Source of the DNA: Minisyncoccota bacterium
GTDB taxonomy: Bacteria > Patescibacteriota > Minisyncoccia > Phycocordibacterales > CAIZLB01
Length of the DNA: 64,000 bases
Assembly (NCBI GenBank): GCA_021734945.1
Contig: JAIPIA010000002.1
Coordinates: forward strand, 194,829-258,828
Direction of reading: 5' to 3'
In this document: positions 3,318-53,028 of the stretch, piece by piece
How positions within the stretch are numbered: position 1 is the stretch's first letter
Layout of the letters: each line of letters begins with the position of its first letter
Position numbers and translations under genes: made by a program
The notes under the pieces: model-generated
The model's database searches: none
Told to the model about the DNA's origin: nothing
Seen by the model: the letters and a program-made list of their open reading frames with translations, nothing else

Positions 3318-4073
3318 TTAAATGGAAGCACTCCATACACTGTCAAACACAAACCTCTGTGTTTTTGCCATCTCAGCACTCTCGATAATAAGGGTAAATA
3401 TCTCCGTATCACTCATTGAAAAAATATAAATGCGATCTTTAATTATAAATTGGTCAGTCAGACCTGCCTTATTTTTATCATCAAGATACTTCACTTGGTG
3501 ATAGGGTCTCTTATTTTTACTAACACTGTCAACCCACTCTTTACTCTTAATTCCTCCAAAAATAATTTCTCTAATTTTATATTCCTTAAGATTTTTGAGC
3601 ACTCTGTTATATTCCTGCACTACCTCTGGAAATTTTTTTGATAAGAAGCCTATATTGCCCATCCAAAGGCCCTCTACTTCCTCTTGAAAAAGAACGTCAA
3701 ATGCTTCTTTATATGCTTGGCGTATTCCCTCTATACCCTCAAGCATTTGCACTTTTGGTTTACCTGATACAGATCCATATTTTGCAGTCAATTCAGGAAG
3801 AACATCATTAAACTGATTTTTTCTAAAATCCAAAATCTCACCTATTCGTTTTGGGTGGACAGCTGAATATACCTTTTTCTTTCCCTTTTTGATTTCTGAA
3901 ACAAGACCTAGTAATTGCAATTCATCGATAATGAGATACACCGTTGGACGCTTTAAAGATGCACGCTTTGCAACTTGAGTCATTTGTCCACTACCTAGTT
4001 CTAAAAGGGCGTTATAGACAACTGATTGCTTTTCAGTTAGCCCCAGCTTTTGAAGTATTAATTGATGTTCCAT
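3318..4073 (-). CDS. TrmB-family wHTH transcriptional regulator (paralog 1 of 8)
   Basis: N-terminus LGLTEKQSVVYNALLELGSGQMTQVAKRASLKRPTVYLIIDELQLLGLVSE matches the TrmB HTH signature. Divergent from the ABC operon at 4276..7626. Confidence 0.65.
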   Translation of the reverse strand: MEHQLILQKLGLTEKQSVVYNALLELGSGQMTQVAKRASLKRPTVYLIIDELQLLGLVSEIKKGKKKVYSAVHPKRIGEILDFRKNQFNDVLPELTAKYGSVSGKPKVQMLEGIEGIRQAYKEAFDVLFQEEVEGLWMGNIGFLSKKFPEVVQEYNRVLKNLKEYKIREIIFGGIKSKEWVDSVSKNKRPYHQVKYLDDKNKAGLTDQFIIKDRIYIFSMSDTEIFTLIIESAEMAKTQRFVFDSVWSASI

Positions 4074-4275
4074 GATTATATAGTAACAGAAGCAGGTATA
4101 TTATGTCAATATAACTGACGATATTTGTATATTATCTATATTTCCCCTTATATTTATATATATTGTTGATTTTATTATGAAATATATATTGACATATTTA
4201 ATATATCGTATTACAGTACTATAGATCGCTAAGTGAAATCTACAGAGGATTAAAATAATAACTTAATAAAAAAAT

Positions 4276-5289
4276 ATGAAAAAAATAATTATTACAACAA
4301 TTTGCATACTTATTCTAGGCTCTATTATCTATAGTTCATCAAACAGTCACAAGAATCCAACCGGAAACAAAGATGAATCTACTAAGAAACAAGAAGTTAC
4401 CATTGCAATGGTTACCTTCCCTGGTTATGGTCCGCTTTTTCTTGCAAAGGATAAGGGATTCTTTACTGATGTTGATGTAAATCTTGAAACTATTGAATCA
4501 CTGGGAGACATACGTGCTGCAGTAAATTCAGGAAATGCAGATGCATACATAGCAACATATGACATGTATCAATCAATAAAGGGACAAAAACCCTCAGGTA
4601 TAGGTTTTCTTGTTGTGGATGAATCACACGGAGGAGACGGTATAGTCGTATCAAAGAATATTAATTCGATAAAAGATTTTAAGGGTAAAAAAGTTGGTGC
4701 TGAACCTGGGTTTCCTCCTTACCTCATACTCCAGTATATGCTAAATAAAGAAGGTATGACCCTTAAAGATATTGATTTCAAAGATCTACCCACTACTGAT
4801 GCAGGCATTGCGTTTGTGGCAAACAAGCTTGATGCTGCGGCAATATTTGAACCTAGTCTCTCTGCAAGTTCTAAAGCAAGGTCCGACTCAAAAATACTTG
4901 TAACGAGTTCAGATCCTGAAATAAAAGGCCTTGTTCAAGATATCCTCTTTGCTAATGAGACATTTATTAAAGAACACCCAGAAGCGTTGACCAAAGTTGT
5001 TGAAGGGTATTTCAAAGCCCTCGAATACATAAAAACAAATCCGGAAGATGCATACACAATTATGGCTAAACACTTTAATGTGTCCCCTGCTGAAATGAAA
5101 GATTTTACTAGTGGTATTAGTTGGATTTCAAAAGAAGAGAATACTTCAATCTTCAATAAAAATTCAAATGTGAATGTATACAAAACATTTACATTGGTCG
5201 GAGATTTACTTGAAAAAAATGAAGAGACTGATGTACGCGTAAACTCATATGAAAAACTTACAGACTCTATTCTTAAAAATACAAAGTAA
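4276..5289 (+). CDS. ABC transporter substrate-binding protein, NMT1/SsuA/TauA (NitT/TauT) family
   Basis: N-terminal membrane anchor/signal MKKIIITTICILILGSIIYSS. NMT1-like fold (FPGYGPLFLAKDKGFF...GNADAYIATYDMY). Confidence 0.6.
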   Translation: MKKIIITTICILILGSIIYSSSNSHKNPTGNKDESTKKQEVTIAMVTFPGYGPLFLAKDKGFFTDVDVNLETIESLGDIRAAVNSGNADAYIATYDMYQSIKGQKPSGIGFLVVDESHGGDGIVVSKNINSIKDFKGKKVGAEPGFPPYLILQYMLNKEGMTLKDIDFKDLPTTDAGIAFVANKLDAAAIFEPSLSASSKARSDSKILVTSSDPEIKGLVQDILFANETFIKEHPEALTKVVEGYFKALEYIKTNPEDAYTIMAKHFNVSPAEMKDFTSGISWISKEENTSIFNKNSNVNVYKTFTLVGDLLEKNEETDVRVNSYEKLTDSILKNTK

Positions 5290-6067
5290 TATATCTTCGT
5301 CAAGAAAATGGCAAATTGATACCCACCGAAGTTCGACTTCTCTCTACCTGTCGATCCTTGTCTTGCTAGCAATATGGACTTTATTAACCTCCTCTCTCCA
5401 TCTCATTGATGCATTGTTCCTGCCATCCCCACTAGAGGTAATTAATTCATTCATAAAACTATTTACAGTAAATGATTTTGCTAAGGACATATTTGCCACC
5501 ACACTCCGTGTATTAGTTGCCTTCGTACTATCAATAGCATTTGCAATGCCATTCTCGATACTAGTTAATGAGTCTAAGACGACAAAAAAGATAGCATTAC
5601 CTTATATAGATTTCCTCCGGTATATACCTGTACCTATACTTATTCCACTCATGATTCTATTTTTTGGACTCGGTGAGAGCTCAAAAATAGCCCTCCTTTT
5701 CCTTGGGACCGTATTTCAACTTGTTCTCCTATTTATTCAGGATCTAGAAAATATTCCACAAGAATACGCTGATATGTCATTCACATTACATTTCACAAAA
5801 TTAAAAATTCTGACAACCAAGATACTCTCTGCATTGCCTAATATGTATGACAATACTCGAGTTTCTCTAAGTTTATGTTGGTCATATGTTATTTTTGCAG
5901 AACTTGTATCTGCACAGACTGGCATTGGACACATGATTAAGGACGCCCAGCGCTTCTCTAACACGGGAAATATTTATGCTGGAATTATAGTAATGGCTCT
6001 AATTGGCTTTGGGTCTGACTTTATTATGAGAAGACTATACACAGTTCTTTTCCCTTACAAATCATAA
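5249..6067 (+). CDS. ABC transporter permease (NitT/TauT family; BPD_transp_1)
   Basis: Multi-TM protein with the conserved EAA-like loop region. Its 5' end overlaps the SBP gene, so the true start may lie downstream of 5289. Confidence 0.55.
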   Translation: MKNLQTLFLKIQSNISSSRKWQIDTHRSSTSLYLSILVLLAIWTLLTSSLHLIDALFLPSPLEVINSFIKLFTVNDFAKDIFATTLRVLVAFVLSIAFAMPFSILVNESKTTKKIALPYIDFLRYIPVPILIPLMILFFGLGESSKIALLFLGTVFQLVLLFIQDLENIPQEYADMSFTLHFTKLKILTTKILSALPNMYDNTRVSLSLCWSYVIFAELVSAQTGIGHMIKDAQRFSNTGNIYAGIIVMALIGFGSDFIMRRLYTVLFPYKS

Positions 6068-7626
6068 TGAGCTATATAGAAATAAAAAAACTTAATAAAT
6101 CTTTTGCTTTAGATAATATATCAAGTATTCATTCACCTAAAAATGTTTTAAAGGATATTTCATTATCTATTGAAAAAGGAGAAATTGTATCACTTCTAGG
6201 CTCATCGGGTTGTGGTAAAACAACCCTGGCAAAATGTATCCTTGGTTTGGAAAAATATAATGGAGAGATTCTAATTGGTGGGGAAAATATCAATCAATAT
6301 CTCAAACACAATAGAATCGGATATGTACCTCAAAAATATGCAAATTTTGAGCACCTCACGGTATATCAAAACGCTCTTATTGCATTCGACAAACCATCTG
6401 AATCTGATAGAGAAAAAATTGACCACGCTTTGAAAGTCCTTGGAATATACAAATCTAAGGACATGTATCCCAAAGCTCTTTCAGGTGGAATGAAACAACG
6501 ACTAGCTATCGCCCGGGCATTATTAACTAACAGTGACATAATCGTATTTGACGAACCCCTTTCTGCGCTTGATATAGAAACAAAGCATCAAACGCAAGAA
6601 CTACTGCTTCAAATTTGGCAAGAGTATAATAAGACTTTTATTTTTATTACTCACGATATAGAGGAAGCATTATTTCTCTCTCATAAGGTAGTGATTCTCG
6701 AAACTAATCCAGGTAAAATACGTGAAGTAATTAGTAGTCCATTTGATTTTCCGAGAGTTTCCACTATTAGATATGAAAAAACATTCCAAGATATTAGAAA
6801 ATCTCTCTCATACATTATACGCTCTGAATCATTGAAAGGATTACTTTTTAGAGACTCACATGTTGAATCAACTACCAGTACAATAAGCAATTCAATTACA
6901 TTTGGTCTTTATGTATGGCCCGGGAATGCACCCTTCTACTATGCTGATGATAATGGGTGGCTTGGAGGAATGAATAAATCAATCAATCTGATATCTTTTT
7001 CTGACAACGCTCAAAAGAATGACTATTTCGAACAAGGAAAAATTGATGTACTTCATGTTACTCTAAACCAACTTGAAGATATACAGAAAAGACACAAAAA
7101 TATTTACGTGCTAGCAGAACTTGATAAGTCTTTTGGTGCGGATGGTATTGTCACTACCCTACCAATTAGAAATGTCTGTGAGTTAAAAGGTCAAAAAATT
7201 GCTGTCGAGAAAAATGAAGTCGGGCACTTCTTCTTAAAATATGTTTTGGCAAAAAATAATATGAATGAAGATGATATACAGATTGTAGACATGAAAACAG
7301 AAGAAATAGGAAGTGCCATTATTTCAAATAAAATTCAAACAGGTGTTCTTTGGGAACCATGGCTTTCTAAGGCTGTTGAACTTTCTGGCGCGACCATTCT
7401 TGCGGATACAATAATGTATGACGCTCCAATCGATAACATTTTAATCTGCAAAAAATCATTCTATCAGAATAATAAAATTGATTTAGATAAGGTAATTGAG
7501 CTTTTTAAGAGGGGTGCAAATGAATACAAATGTAACAAGGGAGCCTTTGCACACAAAACTGCACATATGGTTGGTATGACTGAAAATGAACTACTCAAAA
7601 CGCTTGCGAAGATATCTTTTAATTAG
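6067..7626 (+). CDS. ABC transporter ATP-binding protein fused to a C-terminal NMT1/SsuA-like periplasmic-binding-fold domain
   Basis: Walker A GSSGCGKTT, signature LSGGMKQRLAIARAL, Walker B IIVFDEPLSALD. Residues ~270-519 (FGLYVWPGNAPFYYADDNGW...) resemble an SBP fold and have no signal peptide. Confidence 0.6.
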   Translation: MSYIEIKKLNKSFALDNISSIHSPKNVLKDISLSIEKGEIVSLLGSSGCGKTTLAKCILGLEKYNGEILIGGENINQYLKHNRIGYVPQKYANFEHLTVYQNALIAFDKPSESDREKIDHALKVLGIYKSKDMYPKALSGGMKQRLAIARALLTNSDIIVFDEPLSALDIETKHQTQELLLQIWQEYNKTFIFITHDIEEALFLSHKVVILETNPGKIREVISSPFDFPRVSTIRYEKTFQDIRKSLSYIIRSESLKGLLFRDSHVESTTSTISNSITFGLYVWPGNAPFYYADDNGWLGGMNKSINLISFSDNAQKNDYFEQGKIDVLHVTLNQLEDIQKRHKNIYVLAELDKSFGADGIVTTLPIRNVCELKGQKIAVEKNEVGHFFLKYVLAKNNMNEDDIQIVDMKTEEIGSAIISNKIQTGVLWEPWLSKAVELSGATILADTIMYDAPIDNILICKKSFYQNNKIDLDKVIELFKRGANEYKCNKGAFAHKTAHMVGMTENELLKTLAKISFN

Positions 7627-7656: not shown

Positions 7657-8145
7657 TTACTTTACCTCAGCGCTGTCTTTATGGTCATGCCCATTTTCAT
7701 GTCCGTGTACGTGTGGCTCATGAGCATCTTTATGATCCTTACCCACTGATGACTCCGCAGGCTTTGATTCTACTGATCCTGCTTCCGTCTTCTTTTCTCC
7801 ACGTCCAAAAACTTTTGCAAAGAAAAATAGATATATTAGCTCTAGTATCCCGAATGTATTTATAACCAAAAGTGCGACAAACCACCATTTTTCATTTCTC
7901 TTTGCAGCATGCCAAAGTGCATATCCTTTTATAGCGATAGTCCAAAGTAATGCCAAGAAAAACAATATAGACAGAACTGAAATAGTAAAAAGTGACACTG
8001 GTCCAAACCCGTCAAAACCTCCTCCAAAGTGATTTCCGAACATACTGCCGTGGTATCCTCTACCGTAACCCTCTGCCATCCATGTTCCTGATTGCATCAT
8101 ATGATTTTGCGAAATCACGTCGAGCGACTGAATCTGCTGATTCAT
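7657..8145 (-). CDS. Small membrane protein (DUF5652-like) with His-rich C-terminal tail
   Basis: Gly-rich N-terminus, two TM helices (WWFVALLVINTFGILELIYLFFFAK), tail HKDAHEPHVHGHENGHDHKD. Confidence 0.4.
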   Translation of the reverse strand: MNQQIQSLDVISQNHMMQSGTWMAEGYGRGYHGSMFGNHFGGGFDGFGPVSLFTISVLSILFFLALLWTIAIKGYALWHAAKRNEKWWFVALLVINTFGILELIYLFFFAKVFGRGEKKTEAGSVESKPAESSVGKDHKDAHEPHVHGHENGHDHKDSAEVK

Positions 8146-34898: not shown

Positions 34899-35087
34899 TT
34901 AATTAATTTTTAATCGAATTAGCAGAATTCCAATAGTCTAGTCTTATAAGCGTCTATAAGCCATACTTTTAGTTATATATGTATAGTAATTGCAAAATAT
35001 CCTTATTTGTATTAGTATTAAGCCTGTATAAATAACGCCGTAAAAGTCGGCATATATGTAAATTAAGTCTCAAATTAACTAAATCAT

Positions 35088-36955: not shown

Positions 36956-37324
36956 TTAATTGTATGAATATTTTTCGTCAATTTCACCATGTTTGTTAAC
37001 TAACCTTCGATAGTCGAACATTCTTATTTGCGAAAGATTGGCGGTAATGAACTTATTTTTATATAAGAATGAATAAAACCAAGTCCCCTCTTTAAACTTA
37101 GTAGTAAAAGGTATTCCGATAAACACTGTAGCGCTAAGTTTCTTTAATACAAGTATAGGTCTTGCAAACAAATCACCCTTACCATTAATTTCTACTCCAA
37201 TATTTTTGCCAACGCTACACCACCAAATTTCGCATTCTTTTAAAAAAGGAGGTTTATTATCCCTTGAATCAATTTGTTTTTTCTTTTCACTCCACTCTAA
37301 AAACGTATTCTCCACATCTCTCAT
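36956..37324 (-). CDS. MazF/PemK-like toxin-fold protein (orphan; paralog 1)
   Basis: CEIWWCSVGKNIGVEINGKGDLFARPILVLKKLSATVFIGIPFTT parallels MazF GDLIWVDFDPTKGSEQAGHRPAVVLS...CVPCTT. Confidence 0.45.
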   Translation of the reverse strand: MRDVENTFLEWSEKKKQIDSRDNKPPFLKECEIWWCSVGKNIGVEINGKGDLFARPILVLKKLSATVFIGIPFTTKFKEGTWFYSFLYKNKFITANLSQIRMFDYRRLVNKHGEIDEKYSYN

Positions 37325-39759: not shown

Positions 39760-39942
39760 TTAAGTAATTTATTATGTTATTTTTAACGTACAACATTATT
39801 CAATCAATTTGTTATATGGTCAATTTTGATAGGTATCGTTGTCGTTATTAAGTATTAATATATTGTTTTAAATAAGGTTTAAATCTAAATATTGATAAAA
39901 TCGCCAGTTTTATTGACTAATTTGCCATTTAGTTTACTATAA

Positions 39943-40692
39943 GTGTATATGAATAAATTGGTAGAGTCGCTTAAAACACTAGGATATTCGGATAAAGAGG
40001 CTTTGACATACGTCTCCCTGCTCGAACTTGGTCGCGCAACAGCATATTCTGTATCCGAAAAGTCAGGTCTCAAGAAACCAACTACTCACGTCATTCTGGG
40101 TGAACTCCTCAAAAAAGGTGCAGTTATTACAATTCCAGGCGCTAAAAAGAAGATATTTACAGTAAGATCTCCTGAGGAGCTATTCGCACGAGCCGAGGAA
40201 AGTTTAATAAGAGCAAAAAAGTCCCTTCCAGATTTATTGTCTATGGCTTTAGAGAGTCGTTCTGAATTTAAGACTCTCTACTACGAAGGAATCCAAGGAC
40301 TAAAAGATTCTTTGTATTATAAAATGAAGACAGTCAAAAAGAAGGAGCTTATAGGTTTTTATGCACTCGTAACAAAGGATGTAGATCCTGTAGTACTACG
40401 CATGTTTGATGTTTGGGGTAAAGATTTAAAGGAAAATTCAATAAGAATGAGAGGTTTCACTCCAGAACATTCCTCGACTGAAAGATACAAACCTGCGTCT
40501 AATGATCCATATCGAGATTTGCGTTTTCTTCCTTTAGAAAATTATTCTTCTGAAATATCTATAGAGGCACTCGATGATTTTGTTAGAATTACAGATATTA
40601 GACATCTCCAAATAGTAATTATAGACAATCCACATATCGCTAGGACACTTAGACAAATATTTGAAATGATGTGGCAAGTACTTCCAAGATAG
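39943..40692 (+). CDS. TrmB-family wHTH transcriptional regulator (paralog 4)
   Basis: LKTLGYSDKEALTYVSLLELGRATAYSVSEKSGLKKPTTHVILGELLKKGAVI. Confidence 0.6.
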   Translation: MYMNKLVESLKTLGYSDKEALTYVSLLELGRATAYSVSEKSGLKKPTTHVILGELLKKGAVITIPGAKKKIFTVRSPEELFARAEESLIRAKKSLPDLLSMALESRSEFKTLYYEGIQGLKDSLYYKMKTVKKKELIGFYALVTKDVDPVVLRMFDVWGKDLKENSIRMRGFTPEHSSTERYKPASNDPYRDLRFLPLENYSSEISIEALDDFVRITDIRHLQIVIIDNPHIARTLRQIFEMMWQVLPR

Positions 40693-40735: not shown

Positions 40736-41665
40736 CTAAGCAAGCTTCAACGCAGGAATAATCTGCTTCTTTCGAGATACGATTCCAGGAAGCACTTCTG
40801 TATCACCATCAACTTGAACGCCAAAAGATGCACTGATAACACCTTTCAAGAAATCATTGTATGTGAACACTGTAGCCTCTTCTCGTAGAATATCTACCAC
40901 AAAGAAAAGTACATCGTCGATATCACCATCTTGAGCAATAACTTCACCAATAGCTTTTACAATCCCCTCTTTTCGGACAAGTACTGATGCTGGATCTGTA
41001 GTTTCAACAACAGAAACTCGGATGTTTTTATCACCTACTTCGAACTTCTTACTATCGAGGTGAATAAGCCCTATGTCTGTAAAATCTGAAACATCTGACT
41101 TTGCTTTGAACATTTCATTTGCATACTCTGTGATATTTAGACCAAGTCGAGCCGCCAACTTTTCCGCAATTGCTTTATCATGTGGAGTTGTTGTAGGAGA
41201 ACGAAACTCAAGTGTGTCAGAGAGAATACATGAAAGCATTACTCCAGCGATATCTTCTGGCATAGTTTCAGCGTGAGTACCCATGAGGTCGTGCATAACT
41301 GTAGCAGTTGATGCCACTGGTCGAATAGTCATCTCAATAGGACCTTTTGTCATGAGACCTCCTATAAGCTTGTGATGATCTATGATCTGGAGAATATCTG
41401 CTTCATTCACCCCAGAGAGGAGTTCTTGGGGATTGTTTGTATCTACAATCACCACTTTGTCTTCTGCATCTACTTTTTCGAGAAGTGTAGGTTCAGTCTG
41501 TCTCCATCGTCCGAGAACAAACTTTGTCTCCTTGTTAAGTTCACCAAGTACATATGCCTCTGCTTTGTGAGTAGTGTGAGTGTTGAGGTACCAAGCCCAA
41601 ATAATAGCGCAGCTAGTAGCGTCTGTGTCAGGTGAAATGTGCCCAAAAACTTTGATTGTTGTCAT
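40736..41665 (-). CDS. ppaC: Manganese-dependent inorganic pyrophosphatase, family II (DHH-DHHA2)
   Basis: MTTIKVFGHISPDTDATSCAI, VIVDTNNPQEL, IIDHHKL, DHHA2 region. Own sigma70-like promoter (TTGTCA-16-TATGAT) at 41676-41703. Confidence 0.7.
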   Translation of the reverse strand: MTTIKVFGHISPDTDATSCAIIWAWYLNTHTTHKAEAYVLGELNKETKFVLGRWRQTEPTLLEKVDAEDKVVIVDTNNPQELLSGVNEADILQIIDHHKLIGGLMTKGPIEMTIRPVASTATVMHDLMGTHAETMPEDIAGVMLSCILSDTLEFRSPTTTPHDKAIAEKLAARLGLNITEYANEMFKAKSDVSDFTDIGLIHLDSKKFEVGDKNIRVSVVETTDPASVLVRKEGIVKAIGEVIAQDGDIDDVLFFVVDILREEATVFTYNDFLKGVISASFGVQVDGDTEVLPGIVSRKKQIIPALKLA

Positions 41666-42127
41666 AATGCGTACATCATACAAAAATTTGGTCGTTTGAC
41701 AAAGGGGTTTTGTATTCAAACCCTTAGGTACCACTCCCATAATTAACCTGATTAAAGCATCTTTGATTGACCTAAATTCTCCAGATTCAACACTCCTTAT
41801 TTTCCTAAGAAATCTTTTAGTACTTATCAGACGTATTTGTGAAAGTAGAATGGAGTATGTATCACCTTTAAAATAAATCGTATAATAGAAAATTCCTTCT
41901 TTAACTTTAGTAGTAATTGGCAGGACTAAACAAACTCTCTTATTAAACTTTTTTAAGACTAAAACTGGTCTCTCATATAATGAATTGACACCATTCTGTT
42001 CATCTCCAACATTTAGACCCAAAGAGCACCACCATATTTCTCTTTCTAAGATGGCATGTTTTAATTCACCTTCAATTACTTTATCAATTTCTATTTTTAG
42101 TCTATTCCAATCATTATAATCCTTCAT
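41666..42127 (-). CDS. MazF/PemK-like toxin-fold domain (paralog 2), in frame with ppaC with no intervening stop
   Basis: REIWWCSLGLNVGDEQNGVNSLYERPVLVLKKFNKRVCLVLPITT is homologous to 36956..37324. The ORF 40736..42127 reads through into ppaC. Confidence 0.45.
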
Positions 42128-42390: not shown

Positions 42391-43311
42391 CTATCTCTTC
42401 AAAATTCCCTGTGGACGTACAAGTAAAAATACGATCAATAATGTGAAGGCAATGGCATCTTTCCATTCACCTGATATCTTCCAAATACCAAAGTTCTCAA
42501 CAAAGCCGAGCAAGAATGCACCAAGTACTCCACCGTATACGTTTCCGATTCCACCAATAATAGAAGCAATAACACCCTTGAGCAGTAGTGCCATTCCCAT
42601 AGTTGGCTCAAGGCCTGTGTCATATCCGACGAACACACCAGCAAGCCCTGCAATAGCCGATCCAATTACGCAAACTATAGCAATTGTTTTTTCTGTATTG
42701 ATACCTACAATTTTAGCGACTTGTTCGTTATCACTAATAGCTTCAACAGATTTTCCAAAAAGCGAACGCTTTAAGTACACACCGAGCGCAATCATAATAA
42801 CGAATACTGAAATGATTATAGCAAGCTGGACCTGAGTAATAATTCCTCCAAAAACATTAAACGTAACAATATCCCCTGCTCCAGAACTGAGTGTTTGAAA
42901 TTGACTTGTAAAAAGGATTGCAAGAAAAGCCTGAAGACAAGTGAATGCACCAAGTGAAGCAACTAAAAAAACCATTTGTGAAGCTTTTCGTTCTCGAAGT
43001 TTTTTAAATAGGAAACGATTGAGTAACCAACCAACAGAAGCTGCAACAACAACGCCTATAATAGTAGTAACTATGATTCCTAAAGTACCAGAGTTAAAGA
43101 AATCTCCAAGAGGTTGTATCGAAGCACCCAAACCAGGAAGTTTCTTTGTAAGAAAATATACTGTGTAACCACCAATAGCGGCAACAACACCATGAGTTAA
43201 GTTAAAAAACTTTGTTGTTCCATATATAAGATTGAAACCAAGAGCAACAAGAGCATAGATAGCTCCCGCAATAAGACTATTCGCAATGAGTTGTGGGATT
43301 ATACTGTCCAT
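42391..43311 (-). CDS. livH: Branched-chain amino acid ABC transporter permease LivH-like
   Basis: AIYALVALGFNLIYGTTKFFNLTHG and the conserved C-terminal region. Confidence 0.7.
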   Translation of the reverse strand: MDSIIPQLIANSLIAGAIYALVALGFNLIYGTTKFFNLTHGVVAAIGGYTVYFLTKKLPGLGASIQPLGDFFNSGTLGIIVTTIIGVVVAASVGWLLNRFLFKKLRERKASQMVFLVASLGAFTCLQAFLAILFTSQFQTLSSGAGDIVTFNVFGGIITQVQLAIIISVFVIMIALGVYLKRSLFGKSVEAISDNEQVAKIVGINTEKTIAIVCVIGSAIAGLAGVFVGYDTGLEPTMGMALLLKGVIASIIGGIGNVYGGVLGAFLLGFVENFGIWKISGEWKDAIAFTLLIVFLLVRPQGILKR

Positions 43312-44466: not shown

Positions 44467-45591
44467 CTAATCCTCAATCCTCACCGGTTTACCATTCTGT
44501 ATAATCTTTGTAACAGCCTTAGTCAAAACGAATCCATCTTTATCAATTTTCAAATGCCCTAGTGCTCCTTGGATATCTACATTATATAGAGCATCTTTGA
44601 TATTTGAACTTGAAACTTCTTTTCCAGGATTAGCTTTACTTGCTCGTTCAGCTGAATCAATAATCATCTTTGTGATGTCATATGCATTTGCTGTAGCAAT
44701 CACTTGTTCTTTTCCATACATATTTTTATATGCAGTTCTAAATTCATCAGATGAATCAGCAGCATTTACATACCAGTATCCTTCGAACAAATCTGGTCGA
44801 TCTGTAAGTTCAAAACCTTCAAGTGAAGTTAGTGGCTTTCCAATATTTGCATCTTTAAGTTGTTTTGAAAGAGTTTCAAGCTCTGGTGAAAATGCAATAG
44901 GTACATATATATCTGGATTTGTAGCTTTTGCTTTTGCAACAATTGTACGGAAATCAGTTGTTCCAAAGTTGAACACGTCTTTACTCACAATTTGAATATC
45001 TGTTCCCTGCACTTGTTTCTCAAGTTCATCAATCACAGCAGTAATACCTTGAATATTCGCACCAAACACAGCAACTTTCTTTATATGTCGCTTTTGCAAT
45101 TCCTCAATAAAGAGTCGCACTTCTTCAAATGGAGGTGTCCAATGTATGAAGTTGTAATCCCCTTTTGCAATATTTGGGTCTGAGGCAATACCCATGTGAA
45201 CGATTTGATTCTTTTCAGCAATAGGGTTTGCAATATTTCCAGCGGCTGACGCAAATGTCATGAGAGCGCTAACCTTATCTACTGAAATTAATTTGTTTAA
45301 TGCAGAGGCTGTTCTTTTCGGATCAAAACCATCGTCTTCCATTACAACCTTGTACGAGTTCTTTGAAGTCGGGTTTGCCTTTTCAAATTCATGAATAGCA
45401 AGTTCAGCACCATTTCTTATTCCTTCACCAGCAAAGGCCAAGCTACCTGAAAGCGGCCCAGAAATACCAATCTTAATCACCTGACCTGTAGAAGCAGTCT
45501 GACTAGTGCTATTTGATTTTGAATATGATGAGATACCCCAAACAGCTAGCAATACAGCGACTATTACAATAATAATTTTTGTTTTGTTCAT
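44467..45591 (-). CDS. LivJ-family periplasmic substrate-binding protein
   Basis: IKIGISGPLSGSLAFAGEGIRNGAELAIHEF. Confidence 0.65.
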   Translation of the reverse strand: MNKTKIIIVIVAVLLAVWGISSYSKSNSTSQTASTGQVIKIGISGPLSGSLAFAGEGIRNGAELAIHEFEKANPTSKNSYKVVMEDDGFDPKRTASALNKLISVDKVSALMTFASAAGNIANPIAEKNQIVHMGIASDPNIAKGDYNFIHWTPPFEEVRLFIEELQKRHIKKVAVFGANIQGITAVIDELEKQVQGTDIQIVSKDVFNFGTTDFRTIVAKAKATNPDIYVPIAFSPELETLSKQLKDANIGKPLTSLEGFELTDRPDLFEGYWYVNAADSSDEFRTAYKNMYGKEQVIATANAYDITKMIIDSAERASKANPGKEVSSSNIKDALYNVDIQGALGHLKIDKDGFVLTKAVTKIIQNGKPVRIED

Positions 45592-45789
45592 ATAATATAT
45601 ACGGATTACGCTCCGTGTCAGCGCTTACATTTAATAACTCCACTACTATGCAACACATCTAGTGTTCTGTGTAATATTGGAACAATATTTAACTGTATAG
45701 TACCTATTTTATAAGGATATTCTGTATATTATAAAAATATTGTCCGTTTAGAGTGACATTTTAAAGCAGATATTGTATGCTACTTATAT

Positions 45790-46694: not shown

Positions 46695-47852
46695 TTACCT
46701 CAAATCCACCAACGTATTATTCTCAACTTTTTTAAAGCTGAAACCTACACCTTTTACGTCACCAGTATTGTCGAATGAAAAATCTCCAATAACACCACTG
46801 TACGAATCGAGACCATTTAGATATTTTTTATTTGCCTCTACGCCAGTACCAGTCTTTTCAATAGTCTGCTTGAGTAAGTATGCATAGTCGTACATCTCCC
46901 CTGCCACGAATGGGTAATTTATTGTTCCACCAAATTGAGCCTTATAATTAGTCACAAAACGCGCAGACTGTGGTCGATTAGAATTTAGAGAAGGTACATC
47001 AAGAATAACGGCACCGTTTACAGCAGAATTTGCTTTTACAAACTCATCTCCAGTCATAAAGAATTCTACAAACTGTGCCTTGATCCCCATATCACGCGCT
47101 TGTTTTGCAATAAGCGCACCCGCAGACCCAACTTGTGGGTTTATAAATAGAACCTCTGGATTTGTTAATTTAATCTTAGTTAGAATTGTCTTAAAATCTT
47201 TCATATCACCATTGAATGTTTCTAAGGCAATAACCTCTCCTCCAAGATCACGGACACTTTGAATAAAAGTTTTTTCAAGGGCTACAGCATAATCCGTTTT
47301 TTCTGTAATAGTCGCAACCTTCTTATATTTTGGAACAAGATATTCTGCGAGAGCTCTTCCTGAAAGTGCATCACTTGGAAATGTTCTAAAGAAATATTTA
47401 CCTTTACCTGTTATATCAGGACTTGTACCCTGACCAAGAAATATCACCGGCTTCTGTTCTGTAAGTGGCAAGATAGCAAGTACCTCACTACTACACATTG
47501 CTCCAACAATATATTGGACCCCATCTGTATTAATGAGTTTTTGTGCAGCATTCAATGCATCTTTACCACTACACTTTGAATCTTCATACACAGCCTCAAT
47601 CTGCCGACCATTTATTCCTCCAATTTTATTTATTTCATCAACGGCTATTGCGAAACCATTTTTACCAGCTTCACCATATGGGGCAGCACCACCTGTTAAA
47701 GGTTCAACTACTCCTATTTTTATTGGACCCTTAGACGTTGTGCTATCAGAGACAGAAGTTACAGATGGAGATTTTGACCAAAAAGATGTACAAACAAGCC
47801 CGAGTATCACTACTATACCTATAGTGTATATGCCTTTTTTCGTTGGATTCAT
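46695..47852 (-). CDS. LivJ-family periplasmic substrate-binding protein
   Basis: IKIGVVEPLTGGAAPYGEAGKNGFAIAVDEINKIGGINGRQIEAVYED. Confidence 0.65.
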   Translation of the reverse strand: MNPTKKGIYTIGIVVILGLVCTSFWSKSPSVTSVSDSTTSKGPIKIGVVEPLTGGAAPYGEAGKNGFAIAVDEINKIGGINGRQIEAVYEDSKCSGKDALNAAQKLINTDGVQYIVGAMCSSEVLAILPLTEQKPVIFLGQGTSPDITGKGKYFFRTFPSDALSGRALAEYLVPKYKKVATITEKTDYAVALEKTFIQSVRDLGGEVIALETFNGDMKDFKTILTKIKLTNPEVLFINPQVGSAGALIAKQARDMGIKAQFVEFFMTGDEFVKANSAVNGAVILDVPSLNSNRPQSARFVTNYKAQFGGTINYPFVAGEMYDYAYLLKQTIEKTGTGVEANKKYLNGLDSYSGVIGDFSFDNTGDVKGVGFSFKKVENNTLVDLR

Positions 47853-47979
47853 AAAATTGTGTTTAATTTATTAATTTAGCAACAGTATCTTACACATCTA
47901 TATTTATGTAAAACTGTTGACACGCTTTGACAACTAACACAGGTTTGAGCTACCATATTGATATAGATAGGTTGGTAAT

Positions 47980-48747
47980 GTGAATCGTAATAATAATTTT
48001 ATGGAACTTATAAACGACAAGGAGCGGCGGGTAATGGAAGCTCTTTTTAAACTTGGGAATTGTACGGTCAATCAAATATCTAAGGAAACCCTCATAAATC
48101 GTACCGCCCTCTATCACACACTGGGGCTTTTGATTAAAAAAGGGTTAGTGACACAAGTCGAGAAAGATAAGATCTCATACTATGAAGCAATATCCATTGA
48201 ACAATACGAGAAATGGGTGGAATCAAAAATCGAGACACTTAAACAAACCTCAAAGAAAGATGTGGCTATTTTTTCAACCGTTAAAAAAGACAAGAAGCTT
48301 TCACTCTACGCGGACGTAAAATACTTTGAAGGACCTGAAGGTATCAGAAACTTTTTTGCTGATAGCATTTATAATAATAAAGAAAAGCAGATTCTAACTA
48401 TTACTGACTATGAAAGTGGTTATGCAAAACTTGGTGACTGGTTTACTGAAGTATATTTACCTGAACGAGTACGAAAAGGTGTGCGAGTAAGGAGTGTATT
48501 GCCAGACTCCCCTATTGGGCGAAGTTATGTAAAATCTGCAAAGGAGCTTTTACGTGACATGTGCTTTGTAGATATTTTTAAAGATTTAGGGATAGAAATG
48601 GCAGTATATGATTCAAAAGTAACTATTACAGTATTCGATAAAAAGCATCCAATTGGCGTAATTATCAAAAACGATATTATTGCGAATGCATTTCGAGAGA
48701 TATTTACGTATATTTGGAAGACTGGGGAGAAAGTTAATATAAAGTAG
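47980..48747 (+). CDS. TrmB-like wHTH transcriptional regulator (paralog 6, more divergent)
   Basis: MEALFKLGNCTVNQISKETLINRTALYHTLGLLIKKGLVTQVE. Confidence 0.5.
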   Translation: MNRNNNFMELINDKERRVMEALFKLGNCTVNQISKETLINRTALYHTLGLLIKKGLVTQVEKDKISYYEAISIEQYEKWVESKIETLKQTSKKDVAIFSTVKKDKKLSLYADVKYFEGPEGIRNFFADSIYNNKEKQILTITDYESGYAKLGDWFTEVYLPERVRKGVRVRSVLPDSPIGRSYVKSAKELLRDMCFVDIFKDLGIEMAVYDSKVTITVFDKKHPIGVIIKNDIIANAFREIFTYIWKTGEKVNIK

Positions 48748-48845: not shown

Positions 48846-50000
48846 TTACTTTAAATCCTGAACCTTACCATCCTTGAAAACTCTTGCCTTATGACCTCCA
48901 ACAAGATCCCCATTAGCACCTATAGTTACAGAACCTGAAGCACCATTCCAATTTGCAATACGATGGCCGAAATCAGCAATCTTTGTACCGTCATATCCAA
49001 CCTTAGTAATTGCATCTTTTACGATATATATAGCATCGTATACTGTCTGTCCATAACTCTGGTACGGCATATCTTTTCCGTACTTAGTTTTATACACTTC
49101 AAGCAAGTGTGCAAAAGTCTTGTTTGATGAATCAGTGCTAAATTCAGCTCCCACCATACCATTTAATGCGTCCTTATATTTTGAGAGTACATCAGTAGCA
49201 CCAAGAGTAATATCATTTGTAAACAATGATACGTTCCACTTGAGAGCAATCATTTGAGCAGTTATAGCATCTGCTGAAGCAGGAATATTTGAATCAATAA
49301 ACAAAGCATCTGCTTTCTGTGACTGAAGTTTAGAGAGTTGTGTTCTAAAATCTTTAGTTGCAGGAGCATACTCCTCTTTGATAACCTGACCACCTAAACT
49401 TGTAAATTTATCTGCAAATGCTTTATAAATACCAGCAGTATAATCTGTCTGTTCTTGTATAAAGGCAACCTTTCTCTTTCCCATGTCATGCGCCATTTGA
49501 GCTAATACAGAACCCTGACTACTATCACTTGGAAAGTTTCTAAAGAAATATGAGCTTTTACCTGTAAGACTAGGATTGCTTGATGCAGCTGAGATCAAGG
49601 CAACTTTTGCAGTCTCTGCTACTGGAAGTGCAGCCAGTGTTTCAGCACTACAAAAACCTCCAATAATTACTTGCACCTTATCAACATTCACGAGCTTCTG
49701 AGCAGCATTAACAGCACCTTCTCCATTGCATTTTCCATCTTCAATAATTACTTCAACTCTTTTTCCACTTATTCCCCCTGAAGAGTTTATTTCATCTGCA
49801 GCAATTTGAAGTGTATTTCGAACAAGCTCACCATATGTAGCAGCATCACCAGTAAGTGGTGCAATAGCTCCCACTTTGTAAGTAGATAGTGTATCCACAG
49901 TCTTTTGTACTTCATCAACTTTACTACTTTTACCGGACAGAGAAGACAGTCCCCAGACAACCAACACAATAATCACAATCCAACCAATAGCTTTATTCAT
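48846..50000 (-). CDS. LivJ-family periplasmic substrate-binding protein
   Basis: YKVGAIAPLTGDAATYGELVRNTLQIAADEINSSGGISGKRVEVIIED. Confidence 0.65.
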   Translation of the reverse strand: MNKAIGWIVIIVLVVWGLSSLSGKSSKVDEVQKTVDTLSTYKVGAIAPLTGDAATYGELVRNTLQIAADEINSSGGISGKRVEVIIEDGKCNGEGAVNAAQKLVNVDKVQVIIGGFCSAETLAALPVAETAKVALISAASSNPSLTGKSSYFFRNFPSDSSQGSVLAQMAHDMGKRKVAFIQEQTDYTAGIYKAFADKFTSLGGQVIKEEYAPATKDFRTQLSKLQSQKADALFIDSNIPASADAITAQMIALKWNVSLFTNDITLGATDVLSKYKDALNGMVGAEFSTDSSNKTFAHLLEVYKTKYGKDMPYQSYGQTVYDAIYIVKDAITKVGYDGTKIADFGHRIANWNGASGSVTIGANGDLVGGHKARVFKDGKVQDLK

Positions 50001-50153
50001 AATTGTTGTAAATATTTATAATATCTACAATCGTAGCATCAACTTTACTTATGTCAACTATATTCGTCAATACATATATAAAATTAGCCATATTTATAGG
50101 CGTATTATTGTACATTAATTAAAATTGTGGATGTTATTTGACACAAATATACA

Positions 50154-50957
50154 TTGCAATATATACTTAAAATAATGAAATCAAATAATTCTCAAATAAA
50201 AATAAATCTGCAATCTTTCGGCTTTAGTGAGAAGGAGGTGGATGTATATATTGCGTTATTAGAGTTAGGAAAAGGGACTGTTTCTGAAATTTCACGAAAA
50301 GCTGGAATAAACAGAACAACTGGATATGACATTCTTGGATCACTAGCTACAAAAGGTGTTGTGAATGTATCAGGAAAAGAACCTAAACAAGAATATGCAG
50401 CAGAGTCCCCAGCTTCAATAACACAGTATTTAAAAAGAATAGCTGCTGAGACTGCAGAGCATATTAAAAAATCTGAGGAAATTATCCCCGAACTAGAAGT
50501 TCTTCATGCACTCAAAAATAGACCTAAAATTAGATTTTATGAAGGTAAAGAAGGCTTGCAACATGTATACGAAGATACACTTACATCTTCTGAACCTATT
50601 CGTGCATACGCGACAATCGACGACATGTATAAAGCACTTCCCAACTACTTTCCTGAATACTATAAAAGAAGAGCTAAGAAAGGTATTACAATAAGAGGTA
50701 TTGTTCCAAAGACAGCTGCTGGAATAGATAGAAAAAAATATGACAAGGAAGAGAAGAGAGAAATTGCTTTTGTACCTGCAGATAAATATTATTTTTCACC
50801 TGAAATAAACATATATGACAACAAAGTAATGATTGCTTCTTGGCGAGAAAATCTAGGCATTATCATCGAAAGTGCTGAGATTGCTGATGTTATGAAGAAA
50901 ATGTATGAATTGGCTTGGACTGAGGCTAAGAGGTTGGATAAGGAAGGTGATAAATAA
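50154..50957 (+). CDS. TrmB-family wHTH transcriptional regulator (paralog 7)
   Basis: LQSFGFSEKEVDVYIALLELGKGTVSEISRKAGINRTTGYDILGSLATKGVVN. Confidence 0.6.
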   Translation: MQYILKIMKSNNSQIKINLQSFGFSEKEVDVYIALLELGKGTVSEISRKAGINRTTGYDILGSLATKGVVNVSGKEPKQEYAAESPASITQYLKRIAAETAEHIKKSEEIIPELEVLHALKNRPKIRFYEGKEGLQHVYEDTLTSSEPIRAYATIDDMYKALPNYFPEYYKRRAKKGITIRGIVPKTAAGIDRKKYDKEEKREIAFVPADKYYFSPEINIYDNKVMIASWRENLGIIIESAEIADVMKKMYELAWTEAKRLDKEGDK

Positions 50958-51080: not shown

Positions 51081-51989
51081 TTAAAGCATCGCACTGAACT
51101 TCGTGCCAGTGAGAGCAAGACCCCAGAAACCTTTTGTTCTGACCAATTTCTGAGTATCTTCCCCATCGAAGCTGTTTGGGAGATGTGTCAGAAACATCTT
51201 ACTTTTTGCATCGACAGGCAGAGTGACAAGTGAATCAAATGGCGCATGTACTGGATCATTAGGAAACGGTGATGCATCATGAATCATCACTTTACAACGT
51301 GGAGCATACGACTTGATCAGACCCGCGTCGAAGCGAGTGTCACCTGAAATCCAGATCAAATCATTAATCAGAACTCCAGTGCTCCAAGCTGATTCTTGCC
51401 ATGATGAAGCGACAGCCGGTGTGTGCATGGTTCGGAAAGCCTCGATCTTGAAACTTCCTTTTTTGAACTGATAGATATCTCTGTCTGCGAAGGAACTGTC
51501 CTCCGTAGGCAAAAGAATGTCGTACCAGCGGTTTGAGGGCAAAGTTTTGAGGTCGTCTCCACCTTCATCCTTCGAGGACCTCAACGAATCGTGTGAGGAC
51601 AATCCGCCTGATAGACTATTGTTCCACAGATCTTGTGCCCAAGTGCGAGGAGCCCACAATGTGGCTTTGGCACCAGGGACATTACCGCGGAAATAGCGGT
51701 TATCGATGAGCATCCGATCGAGACCACCTATGTGATCTCCATGAGCATGAGTGATAAAGAAGTTTGAAATCGAAGCAGGATTGATTCCAAACCGAGTGAA
51801 CGACGCAGGAACGTTGTAGCCGCAGTCGATAAGTAAAGATTCCTTACCGAGAACAGCAATGAAACTCGTGTGCGTGTTTGCCTGCGCGGCCCCGTGACCA
51901 ATAGCATAGACTTCGAGCTGACTGCCGTCGTTTTGAAGCGAGACAGCACTAAACTGCGTAACTTTAACATGGGCTGGTTTGATTTTCAT
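51081..51989 (-). CDS. MBL-fold metallo-hydrolase
   Basis: FITHAHGDHIGGL (HxHxDH) and additional His/Asp ligands. Confidence 0.55.
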   Translation of the reverse strand: MKIKPAHVKVTQFSAVSLQNDGSQLEVYAIGHGAAQANTHTSFIAVLGKESLLIDCGYNVPASFTRFGINPASISNFFITHAHGDHIGGLDRMLIDNRYFRGNVPGAKATLWAPRTWAQDLWNNSLSGGLSSHDSLRSSKDEGGDDLKTLPSNRWYDILLPTEDSSFADRDIYQFKKGSFKIEAFRTMHTPAVASSWQESAWSTGVLINDLIWISGDTRFDAGLIKSYAPRCKVMIHDASPFPNDPVHAPFDSLVTLPVDAKSKMFLTHLPNSFDGEDTQKLVRTKGFWGLALTGTKFSAML

Positions 51990-52278
51990 AGAACTATGAG
52001 CTTTCGCTCGGGTTGGTTGGTTTGGATTTTCTGAATAGAATGGAGTCTAGTTGCACCAGACTTTTCTAAATTGTGTTGTCTGAGGTTCTTCTAGACGTCA
52101 CCCTGACGTCACCTCTATATCTGTATTTCTAACTATAATTCTAGTACCTGCGTAGTTTGGCGCAATAATTTATGTCGAACTTTTCGTCTAAAATTATTGA
52201 TTTAACAATAGTGAGGCGTATAATAAAGTAAGTACTGAAAGGTGGCGAATTCAATAAAAAATTAAATACAATAAAAAT

Positions 52279-53028
52279 ATGACTGAACTTATTGAACTAA
52301 TTAAAAACAGTGGGTTAACAGAGAAAGAATCAAAAATATATCTTGCGGCTTTAGAACTGGGAGAAGGAACAGTACAAGATATATCTAAAAAATCTGGAGT
52401 TGTTCGTACTTCCCTATACTATATTATCGAACGACTTGTGAGAGAAGGCTTTCTTATTGAAACAAAAAGAAACCGTAAAAACTTTTACATGGCTTGCCCA
52501 CCAATGGATGTAGCAACAAAACTTCGTCAGAGAATTCGTGAATTTGAGACGCACATAAATATTCTCGAAGCGCGACGTGGTGCTCTATATAAGAGACCAC
52601 GTATGTATTTCTTGCATGGTCCGAGTGGTTTCAAAGAAGCTTGGAATATTATTTTTAAATCTGATCCACGCGAATATTCTATAATCACGGAGGGACTCAA
52701 CTTTCTCGATTATGTGAAGGCAAAGTATATTGTGACTGAAATAATTTCTCAGAAGAAAAAACTCGGAGTACGCAGTAAACAAATGATCATCGATTCACCT
52801 TATGCACGTGAACATATTTTACCTAAAGATAAATTGGAAAATAGAAAAAGCCGACTACTCCCCCGAGGTATGAGACTTGGTTTTACAGAAGTAATATGTC
52901 CGAAGCTTGTTGCTTTTATTTCACCAAAATACAATGATAGTATTTTTATAATCGAAGATGCAGTGTTCGCTGAAACACGTAAGGTACTGTTTGATCAGTT
53001 GTGGTATACGTTGCCGGAGGTGAAGTAA
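52279..53028 (+). CDS. TrmB-family wHTH transcriptional regulator (paralog 8)
   Basis: IKNSGLTEKESKIYLAALELGEGTVQDISKKSGVVRTSLYYIIERLVREGFLIE. Confidence 0.6.
   Translation: MTELIELIKNSGLTEKESKIYLAALELGEGTVQDISKKSGVVRTSLYYIIERLVREGFLIETKRNRKNFYMACPPMDVATKLRQRIREFETHINILEARRGALYKRPRMYFLHGPSGFKEAWNIIFKSDPREYSIITEGLNFLDYVKAKYIVTEIISQKKKLGVRSKQMIIDSPYAREHILPKDKLENRKSRLLPRGMRLGFTEVICPKLVAFISPKYNDSIFIIEDAVFAETRKVLFDQLWYTLPEVK

Follow-up and report, generated by a model that had tools for sequence, protein, structure and literature searches.

A 64,000-nucleotide stretch of contig JAIPIA010000002.1 from a Minisyncoccota bacterium (hereafter, the window; GC content 35–41%, AT-rich) encodes eight paralogous transcription regulators of the TrmB family, T1 to T8, each transcribed divergently from a partner gene (Table 1). 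As originally predicted, T3 to T7 face LivJ-type (Peripla_BP_6) substrate-binding proteins (SBPs), T1 faces a NitT/TauT-type ATP-binding cassette (ABC) operon, T2 an inositol monophosphatase (IMPase) family gene and T8 a metallo-β-lactamase (MBL)-fold gene. We propose that the eight proteins would act as specific regulators, mostly of their own and neighbouring genes, through boxes that we identified at their promoters, and we give this reading a probability of roughly 0.58. The strongest mechanistic lead is the putative joint control of T6 and its partner SBP gene, S6, from one conserved block.

All eight open reading frames (ORFs) lie where they had been placed, and the TrmB-type N-terminal pattern is visible in every translation; for T7, the database start is 50175, and the TTG at 50154 given previously is upstream of it. 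The assignment to the TrmB family holds as well. PF01978, the TrmB N-terminal winged helix–turn–helix (wHTH), matches all eight at 33.3–66 bits (gathering score, 25.6 bits), and when all six-frame ORFs of the window of at least 60 amino acids were searched with a profile of the eight, T1–T8 alone were recovered at E ≤ 10. Eight full-length members of one family in 50 kb, seven of them within 21 kb, cannot be due to chance. The proteins are 242–284 amino acids in length. An IIE(D/S)A motif that had been described as their C-terminal ending is exact in four of the eight and has a related sequence in the other four, but lies 17–53 residues before the C terminus. Database records for T1, T6 and T7 are 100% identical hypothetical proteins from a metagenome-assembled genome of Candidatus Pacebacteria (Patescibacteria). 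The family is large: of 1.84 billion cluster representatives, the eight-sequence profile matched 3,883 at E ≤ 1e-30 and 12,372 at E ≤ 1e-10.

The C-terminal ~170 residues of T1–T8 match no Pfam family, and a Pfam search of the eight found no match to the sugar-binding subdomain PF11495. The NCBIfam equivalogs for TrmB, TrmBL1 and haloarchaeal TrmB (NF040851, NF047390 and NF047392) score 18–40 bits against cut-offs of 500–650, and the TrmBL2 equivalog NF041141 matches T4 only, whose 17.2 bits fall far short of the 530-bit cut-off. Scores this far below the cut-offs indicate, at the sequence level, that T1–T8 are orthologous to no characterized TrmB, TrmBL1 or TrmBL2 member. Sugar-sensing TrmB and TrmBL1 proteins in the strict sense are ruled out, as those are ~340 amino acids long with PF11495 as a C-terminal sugar-binding subdomain, whereas the window proteins are shorter, lack PF11495 and fall below the equivalog cut-offs.

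The eight-member profile aligns over its full length to the TrmBL2 structure 5bpd (E = 2e-10), and to Pyrococcus TrmB (3qph) by its N-terminal part alone (residues 7–111). An AlphaFold2 model of T7 (mean predicted local distance difference test score, 94.7) consists of a wHTH (residues 1–76), a long helix (80–114) and an alpha/beta domain (118–257). The top eight PDB matches to this model in Foldseek are all TrmBL2 chains, aligned over the full length (E = 2e-13 to 4e-12), with a template-modelling (TM) score of ~0.4, a root-mean-square deviation of 12–18 Å and 16–19% identity to 5bpd; the low TM score and high deviation probably reflect a different relative orientation of the domains. After the TrmBL2 chains, the C-terminal domain also matches PLD3 and vaccinia F13. 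The modelled architecture is TrmBL2-type: a winged helix, a helix of ~35 residues and a phospholipase D (PLD)-like alpha/beta domain, with no sugar-binding barrel. Structure prediction, which had been suggested as a way to find a ligand pocket, yields a well-folded PLD-like domain; the TrmB sugar-binding subdomain is absent, none of the known ligand sites falls in the PLD-like subdomain, and we regard ligand sensing by this domain as doubtful. Mean identity among the eight paralogs is 32% in the wHTH, 15.5% in the helix and 20.6% in the C-terminal domain, and the recognition helix is different in each.

Many relatives of 510–1,080 amino acids have three to seven profile matches apiece. In two that we read, P0219 (1,061 amino acids) and P0244 (513 amino acids), a single TrmB wHTH precedes several repeats of the PLD-like domain, each with a terminal ...LWNQ(D/E)-like motif. 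This domain is therefore an autonomous, repeatable module.

For comparison with other genomes, we used loci L001–L080, which are centred on T7 orthologs and represent the best 80 of 347 species genomes with such an ortholog (one genome per species); L081–L083, three long contigs with T1 orthologs; and L084, L086, L087 and L088, which contain T6 orthologs. When five T6 upstream regions are aligned, a single 28-nucleotide block, TGTAAAACTGTTGACACnnTTTGACAAC, is conserved and the flanks cannot be aligned. The candidate T6 box is TGTTGACAC. The block includes the T6 −35 element (TTGACA) and, as the reverse complement of its TGTAAA, the S6 −35 element (TTTACA). Hexamers resembling −10 elements occur 16–18 nucleotides away on both sides in all five loci. 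On the T6 side, the hexamer is 17–18 nucleotides downstream, and the ATG follows 5–7 nucleotides later in the four other genomes; the window has a leader of ~45 nucleotides. On the S6 side, a TAnnnT-type −10 is found 16–17 nucleotides further on in four of the five genomes, and the window hexamer there is GATACT. Because both −35 elements are in the block, with −10-like hexamers on either side, the T6 and S6 promoters are arranged back to back. A conserved box spans the gap between the −35 elements and overlaps them, and a single regulator, once bound, could act on both genes.

T7 is a near-universal, highly conserved core regulator of Paceibacteria with a genome-variable partner. The best 80 of its 347 orthologs are 63–80% identical to it, the mean column identity is 74% (30 sequences), and its database homologs (72–88% identity) are labelled as Nomurabacteria, Vogelbacteria, Parcubacteria group and Paceibacterota. 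Partners of other T7 orthologs include radical-SAM-like, Cys-rich, membrane and receiver-like proteins. The upstream region is conserved in ~64 of the 80 genomes, with the consensus ...TTTTGTGGAAAAnnATTGACACAAAT-N~14-TATACT-N5-7-ATG. As the −35 element starts 35–37 nucleotides before the ATG in 51 of 64 cases, the T7 mRNA looks leaderless. Approximately 80 nucleotides further upstream is a conserved divergent promoter, TTGACGA-N6-TTGACA-N~15-TGCTATACT on the other strand. Both promoters of this module have a 7-nucleotide box, TTGWSGA, at the same offset (−13 to −7 from the −35 element), and the composite box and −35 pattern occurs at only two sites in the window, before T7 and before S7. We rejected the idea that such a box is a general feature of Paceibacteria promoters, as it has no positional signal in 39 consensus promoters far from TrmB genes.

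The T7 recognition helix varies with the box: NRTTGYDIL occurs with TTGTGG, NRPTGYHVL with TTGTTC and QRTTCY[NT] with TTGT[TC][GT]A. Of 47 helices with D, 46 occur with GG (TTGTGG), and of 18 helices without it, 17 occur with a different box (Fisher p = 1.7e-13, uncorrected for phylogeny).

Two further features of these loci involve the divergent side or an additional module copy. In L004, L008, L010, L011, L022, L026 and L031, although not in the window, a leader, 'CAGAAG..TTGATAACCTGCTTGCGAAT', is conserved at the transcript start and is followed by a hairpin of ~50 nucleotides, on the minus strand, 10–100 nucleotides downstream of the promoter divergent to the T7 ortholog. RNAalifold of six sequences gave 21 pairs, 7 of which have compensatory changes, and the hairpin matched no Rfam family at the gathering threshold; it may be an undescribed cis-regulatory RNA of Paceibacteria. 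In L007, a further copy of the full T7-type bidirectional promoter module (TTGTGGAAAAGTATTGACACA and TTGACGATAGCTATTGACA) lies at ~7741–7850, ~2 kb upstream of the listed T7 match, and represents either a coordinate offset or a duplicated module.

T1 has ~90 orthologs at 45–66% identity. The T1-ortholog promoters in L081–L083 have TGTCA-N7-TGACA over the −35 element, and the window has its counterpart, CGTCA-N7-TGACA, in the same place; this is one of only three matches to a strict dyad, YGTCA-N7-8-(YGTCA or TGACR), in the 64-kb window. Among the window intergenic regions, the strict dyad occurs in IG1 and IG7 only, and also in IG5 with one mismatch. Across the 80 loci, its density per kilobase is 2.2 upstream of T7 orthologs and 0.76 upstream of other paralogs, compared with 0.011 in other intergenic regions and 0.019 in coding sequence. 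A single operator shared by all eight intergenic regions, which motif discovery had been suggested to look for, was not found; the ortholog groups have their own boxes. The enrichment of the dyad upstream of TrmB genes, together with the paralog-specific boxes, suggests a shared grammar rather than one operator.

At the same offset from the −35 element, the boxes read TCGCCAG (T4), TTGTCCG (T5), TCGTCAG (T1), TTGTGGA (T7) and CTGTTGA (T6). The T5 box is 15/19 identical to that of a T5-like gene in L017, and a perfect TGTGG-N8-CCACA precedes the T5-like gene of L088; the T5 intergenic regions of the window and L088 do not align with each other (the proteins are 45% identical). The −10 box of T1, T4, T5 and T7 ends 1–8 nucleotides before the ATG (7–8 nucleotides for T4, T5 and T7), with no evident Shine–Dalgarno sequence, and these four genes appear to be leaderless.

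We hypothesize that the TrmB paralogs would bind DNA as dimers, each recognizing a site of its own with the form 5 nt-N7/8-5 nt and a sequence that varies on TGTCA...TGACA. The predicted site abuts or overlaps the −35 element of the regulator's own sigma70-type promoter, which would lead to autoregulation. If a partner is transcribed from a promoter in this short intergenic region, the partner gene may be controlled as well; at T6/S6, where the −35 elements are back to back, a single bound regulator might govern both genes. T3 to T7 would thereby be coupled to membrane-anchored LivJ-type SBPs feeding a single LivHMGF translocon, whose genes lie dispersed between the cassettes in the order of the operon. 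Family membership, fold, gene order, conserved pairs and cis-elements and the covariation of box and recognition helix are observed; binding to DNA at the boxes, the direction in which transcription is regulated and any response of the C-terminal domain to an effector are inferred, with repression the likelier outcome at sites that overlap the −35 element.

Several observations weigh against this proposal. Only 4 of 75 T7 orthologs in the 80 loci have an SBP as upstream neighbour, although the neighbour is divergent in 62 of 75; none of the three T1 orthologs in L081–L083 adjoins an NMT1/ABC gene, and each has a different small unknown gene as divergent partner, with other TrmB paralogs close by. 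T5-like genes that are 49% identical are paired with genes other than SBPs. With partners that differ between genomes for T1, T7 and the T5-like genes, a regulator cannot be said to control its neighbour as a general rule. The boxes of T2, T3, T4 and T8 were seen by eye in single sequences, and in AT-rich DNA perfect 5-N7/8-5 repeats are not uncommon. The covariation of helix and box amounts to an estimated four to five independent lineages, with no phylogenetic correction. Activators, too, typically bind just upstream of the −35 element (about −48 to −42), so that these boxes would suit either sign of regulation. LivG carries a frameshift in the assembly, and the transporter may therefore be incomplete. 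TrmBL2, the nearest relative with a solved structure, is a chromatin protein without sequence specificity and is not known to have a ligand.

One alternative is that T1–T8 are nucleoid-associated proteins or global repressors that coat DNA with low sequence specificity, in which case adjacency to SBP genes would have no regulatory meaning. TrmBL2, a chromatin protein and global repressor (PMC3031468 and PMC4877046), is the best match in both sequence and fold, with equal length and domain order and without the TrmB sugar-binding subdomain; the extreme conservation of T7 across 347 species with variable neighbours also fits. However, eight paralogs with different recognition helices, conserved boxes specific to ortholog groups at their own promoters, a T7 box that co-varies with the recognition helix, the strong enrichment of SBP genes beside TrmB genes with a conserved T6–S6 couple, and the TrmBL2 equivalog score of 17 against 530 bits are difficult to reconcile with a coating protein, and we find this explanation quite unlikely. 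Alternatively, the locus may be an insertion hotspot between adk and secY that collects accessory genes (SBPs, TrmB, MazF-like toxins and hydrolases), with TrmB proteins that only autoregulate or act in trans. A 27.4-kb insertion (27648–55069) indeed interrupts an otherwise conserved spc-operon gene order (…L15-secY / adk-map) and contains T2–T8, the Liv genes and every one of the six LivJ-type SBPs. At this position, L087 has a 4-kb insertion with a single cassette (map-adk-MFS-x-S6<->T6-secY-L15-S5; a major facilitator superfamily (MFS) gene, an unknown gene, S6 and T6). Insertions also break up the liv operon, genes of the PemK/MazF type are found both in the island and next to the T6 gene of L088, and partners vary as noted above. 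Against this stand the 28 conserved nucleotides that hold both −35 elements of T6 and S6, T6–S6 adjacency away from the secY site as well (L084, L086 and L088), divergent orientation retained in 24 of 25 paralogs and the presence of a T7-type box on the partner-side promoter. We judge this reading to be unlikely.

The original prediction favoured a third possibility, that a sensor–regulator–SBP cassette is duplicating in tandem here, with TrmB and SBP co-diverging towards new ligand specificities. The divergent TrmB–SBP module itself is real and recurs in other Paceibacteria: in the 80 loci, a TrmB gene lies immediately upstream, in divergent orientation, of 15 of the 23 LivJ-type SBPs, the upstream neighbour of non-T7 paralogs is divergent in 24 of 25 cases (an SBP in 11 of those), and alternating TrmB/SBP arrays are found in L014, L029, L067, L074 and L078. 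In the window, the alternation of SBP and TrmB on opposite strands is repeated five times in 17 kb. Array length varies elsewhere, from one cassette in L087 and two in L088 to six or seven in L067, which has TrmB copies that are 60% and SBPs that are 59% identical, so duplication does happen in the lineage; the C-terminal domain is also more diverged than the wHTH. Yet the copies in the window are only 18–34% (TrmB) and 15–34% (SBP) identical, and in all-versus-all comparison the closest TrmB pair, T5–T7, does not correspond to the closest SBP pair, S6–S7. Window T5, T6 and T7 branch with orthologs from other genomes rather than with each other, and T6–S6 and T5–S5 orthologs elsewhere, at 42–64% identity, make these cassettes older than this genome. 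The claim of recent duplication is thus not upheld and tandem duplication in this genome is very unlikely; T1–T8 are ancient paralogs. The accompanying remark that eight copies in 50 kb would be unusual for any bacterium is fair in general, as TrmB proteins are reported to make up about 0.5% of bacterial (and ~12% of archaeal) transcription factors (PMC9426492), but such density is not unique in the lineage: 20.8 kb of L067 contain six TrmB genes together with several SBPs.

Specific local regulation by old regulator–partner couples is consistent with how pairs are inherited. T6 orthologs (58–64% identity) are paired with S6 orthologs (53–62%) in all four of L084, L086, L087 and L088, and L088 retains the window order S5<->T5 S6<->T6, with the sole T5–S5 ortholog pair. 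A total of 74 T6 homologs were found, of which distant T6-like genes (48–49% identity) have other partners, and a metagenome scan with S6 gave two loci. The only T2-like gene compared (L054, 39% identity) has a partner that differs from that of window T2. Identity matrices of TrmB proteins and partner SBPs correlate across 20 pairs with Mantel r = 0.47, but within genomes at only 0.29, with nearest neighbours in agreement for 1 of 20. After orthologous pairs were added, r rose to 0.63 (p = 0.0002, n = 25) and the T6 clade coincided exactly with the S6 clade; nearest neighbours, however, agree in only 4 of 25. In L074, two SBPs are 67% identical, whereas the nearest listed relatives of their partner TrmB proteins are other proteins, at 26% and 49% identity. 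These patterns suggest that T6–S6 and T5–S5 are old cognate couples inherited together, that the deep branching order is neutral on co-duplication and that SBP and TrmB duplications can occur separately.

A far-reaching version of our proposal is that, in Paceibacteria, an archaeal-type TrmBL2-like protein was turned into the main family of specific transcription factors, with PLD-like domains that sense the ligand of the cognate SBP, sense-and-import cassettes that are gained, lost and shuffled at the secY–adk hotspot, and T7 as a universal master regulator with a portable bidirectional promoter driving any adjoining gene. We consider this speculative and rather improbable as a whole.

The window regulators seem to be most like classical divergently transcribed, autoregulated local regulators, and by analogy also resemble Pyrococcus TrmB, whose gene is inside the trehalose/maltose ABC-transporter cluster that TrmB represses. 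Like LysR-type regulators, they are head to head with the target across a short shared intergenic region, with a candidate operator over their own promoter; family and fold differ, and in this very small genome a single family accounts for many such pairs as well as for a universal member, T7. The PF01978 wHTH is shared with TrmB and TrmBL1/Tgr of Pyrococcus and Thermococcus and with Halobacterium TrmB (VNG1451C). TrmB operators are dyads, and that of Halobacterium, TACT-N7-8-GAGTA, has a spacing like the 5-N7/8-5 sites of the window; members of the family activate or repress depending on site position. The partners of TrmB and TrmBL1 are sugar transporters, whereas those in the window are SBPs of the amino-acid/amide class (LivJ-type). 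TrmBL2 of Thermococcales (TK0471/PF0496; 5bpd, 5box, 5bpi and 5bqt) is similar in length (~260 amino acids), with a wHTH, a long helix, a PLD-like C-terminal domain and no sugar-binding barrel. It differs in its low identity to the window proteins and its equivalog score, already given, and in being a single-copy, abundant protein without sequence specificity, in contrast to eight paralogs with distinct recognition helices and conserved promoter boxes in a bacterial host with sigma70-type promoters.

The LivJ/LivK–LivHMGF importers provide the parallel for the transport genes: Peripla_BP_6 SBPs, LivH and LivM permeases and LivG- and LivF-like ATPases, such that several SBPs would share one translocon. 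The window differs in having six anchored SBPs without a lipobox, an operon broken up by regulator cassettes and a frameshifted LivG. To our knowledge, transcription regulation in Patescibacteria (candidate phyla radiation) is almost unstudied; these organisms possess very few regulators. A full-text search of one literature library pairing TrmB with Patescibacteria, 'candidate phyla radiation' or Parcubacteria found no paper. The lineage-wide TrmB expansion with cognate SBP couples is a real, undescribed variant of the regulator-next-to-transporter layout, with a mechanism that is not unprecedented. It yields directly testable predictions: operators for T1, T6 and T7, the T6–S6 couple and the core T7 promoter module. 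If the C-terminal domains sense ligands, the cassettes would reveal what these episymbionts scavenge; if they sense none, the family would still be a bacterial example of a TrmBL2-type fold in sequence-specific control.

Table 1. Regulators, partner genes, candidate control elements and island boundaries in the window (S3–S7, LivJ-type SBPs; bits for T1–T8 refer to PF01978)
Feature	Position	Strand	Match or remark
T1, TrmB regulator, 251 aa	3318-4073	-	53 bits
T1 putative leaderless-start region	4074-4110		
T1 operator candidate	4104-4122		CGTCA-N7-TGACA (T1 strand), overlaps T1 −35; counterparts in L081-L083
NitT/TauT-type ABC operon	4276-7626	+	Pfam NMT1, BPD_transp_1, ABC_tran+NMT1
NMT1 SBP of the operon	4276-5289		
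Permease of the operon	5249-6067		
ATPase of the operon	6067-7626	+	Fused to NMT1 domain
map	26138-26980		Pfam Peptidase_M24
adk, left island boundary	27039-27647	-	Pfam ADK
Short MFS gene	28015-28578		Left end
LivF-like ABC ATPase	28667-29485	-	ABC_tran; 48-53% identity to last liv-operon gene of L016, L061
IMPase-family gene, T2 partner	30757-31779	-	PF00459, 33.9 bits
T2 dyad	31838-31855		TGTAC-N8-GTACA, by eye; single occurrence in window
T2, TrmB regulator, 242 aa	31897-32625	+	49 bits
LivG-like ABC ATPase, two ORFs	32641-33443	-	ABC_tran N-part 32964-33443; ABC_tran C-part and BCA_ABC_TP_C 32641-33024
S3, N-terminal membrane anchor	33726-34898	-	Peripla_BP_6, 111.6 bits; hydrophobic N terminus, no lipobox
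T3 inverted repeat	35036-35052		CGCCG-N7-CGGCA, by eye; also hairpin in terminator scan
T3, TrmB regulator, 253 aa	35088-35849	+	42 bits
LivH permease	35924-36790	-	BPD_transp_2, 163 bits
S4b	37390-38526	-	Peripla_BP_6, 154 bits
S4a	38677-39759	-	Peripla_BP_6, 101 bits; divergent from T4
T4 box	39901-39918		TCGCCAG-N5-TTGACT, by eye
T4 putative leaderless-start region	39919-39948		
T4, TrmB regulator, 249 aa	39943-40692	+	46.5 bits; alternative ATG 39949
LivM permease	42391-43311	-	BPD_transp_2, 142.5 bits
S5	44467-45591	-	Peripla_BP_6, 138 bits; 42% ortholog in L088
T5 box	45740-45758		TTGTCCG...GTGACA
T5 putative leaderless-start region	45759-45789		
T5, TrmB regulator, 284 aa	45790-46644	+	46.4 bits
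S6	46695-47852	-	Peripla_BP_6, 188.7 bits; orthologs in L084, L086, L087, L088
T6/S6 control block TGTAAAACTGTTGACACGCTTTGACAAC	47907-47934		S6 −35 (TTTACA, minus strand), central box, T6 −35
T6, TrmB regulator	47980-48747	+	33.3 bits; database model 248 aa, start 48001
S7	48846-50000	-	Peripla_BP_6, 183 bits
T7 bidirectional control region	50052-50148		Conserved in ~64 genomes
S7-side box and −35	50052-50070		Reverse complement of TTGACGA-N6-TTGACA
T7 box and −35	50125-50148		TTGTGGA-N6-TTGACA
T7 putative leaderless-start region	50149-50174		
T7 −10	50162-50167		TATACT, seven nt before ATG
T7, TrmB regulator, 260 aa	50175-50957	+	66 bits
MBL-fold hydrolase, T8 partner	51081-51989	-	PF23023 Anti-Pycsar_Apyc1, 67.6 bits (cut-off 50), plus Lactamase_B
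T8 repeats	52094-52113, 52173-52189		By eye: TGTCG-N7-CGTCT, CGTCA-N6-CGTCA
T8, TrmB regulator, 249 aa	52279-53028	+	50.3 bits
secY, right island boundary	55070-56341	-	PF00344, 343 bits; then ribosomal genes L15, S5, L6, L5, S3

Seven SBP paralogs had been counted in this region. Six are LivJ-type (S3, S4a, S4b, S5, S6 and S7), with Peripla_BP_6/PF13458 scores of 101–189 bits (cut-off, 31.7 bits), a hydrophobic N-terminal segment in all and a lipobox in none; a seventh is reached only if the NMT1-type SBP is included. Their description as operons stands in part: the SBP genes are divergent from TrmB genes, but hairpins resembling terminators lie in the convergent gaps after S6 and S7, suggesting single-gene units. 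A generic promoter and terminator scan performed no better on the window than on shuffled sequence, with 64 versus 61.5 promoters and 11 versus 10.1 terminators at 28–46 kb, and 41 versus 36.7 promoters and 12 versus 7.9 terminators at 44–56.5 kb; it was used solely for individual hairpins in convergent gaps.

Compact liv operons (SBP-LivM-LivH-LivG-LivF) are present in L016 and L061, and the same string occurs in L074 with a weaker LivM match (30%). The window has the same gene order, on the minus strand, interrupted by insertions that contain TrmB genes. The two LivG-like ORFs overlap by 61 nucleotides, so that LivG is either a pseudogene with a frameshift or wrongly assembled.

Instead of a generic hydrolase, the MBL-fold gene opposite T8 may encode an enzyme resembling cyclic-nucleotide phosphodiesterases. 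We considered a defence island and rejected this reading: PADLOC defence models gave nothing for the MBL, DHH, PemK, 2-oxoglutarate (2OG) and IMPase proteins, and matched window proteins only weakly, at the HTH level, to Csa3/CasR (17–24 bits). No RNA family was found in an Rfam scan of the window at the gathering threshold.

Other genes of the window have unusual domain combinations. The ABC ATPase of the T1-linked operon has a fused C-terminal NMT1-type domain, and thus provides a second SBP domain in a NitT/TauT-type operon. Just outside the island, to the left of map, a 1,017-amino-acid protein (22353–25406, minus strand) has VirD4/TraG-type coupling-protein domains. Within the island, a PemK/MazF-like toxin domain is fused to the N terminus of a DHH–DHHA2 phosphoesterase (40736–42127, minus strand). 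A second PemK-like ORF (36956–37324, minus strand) is downstream of S4b, and a PemK gene also adjoins the T6 ortholog in L088. Between the regulators and secY, a NUDIX hydrolase (54174–55022, minus strand) has a weak N-terminal winged-helix match (DUF7347) and may be another regulator–enzyme fusion.

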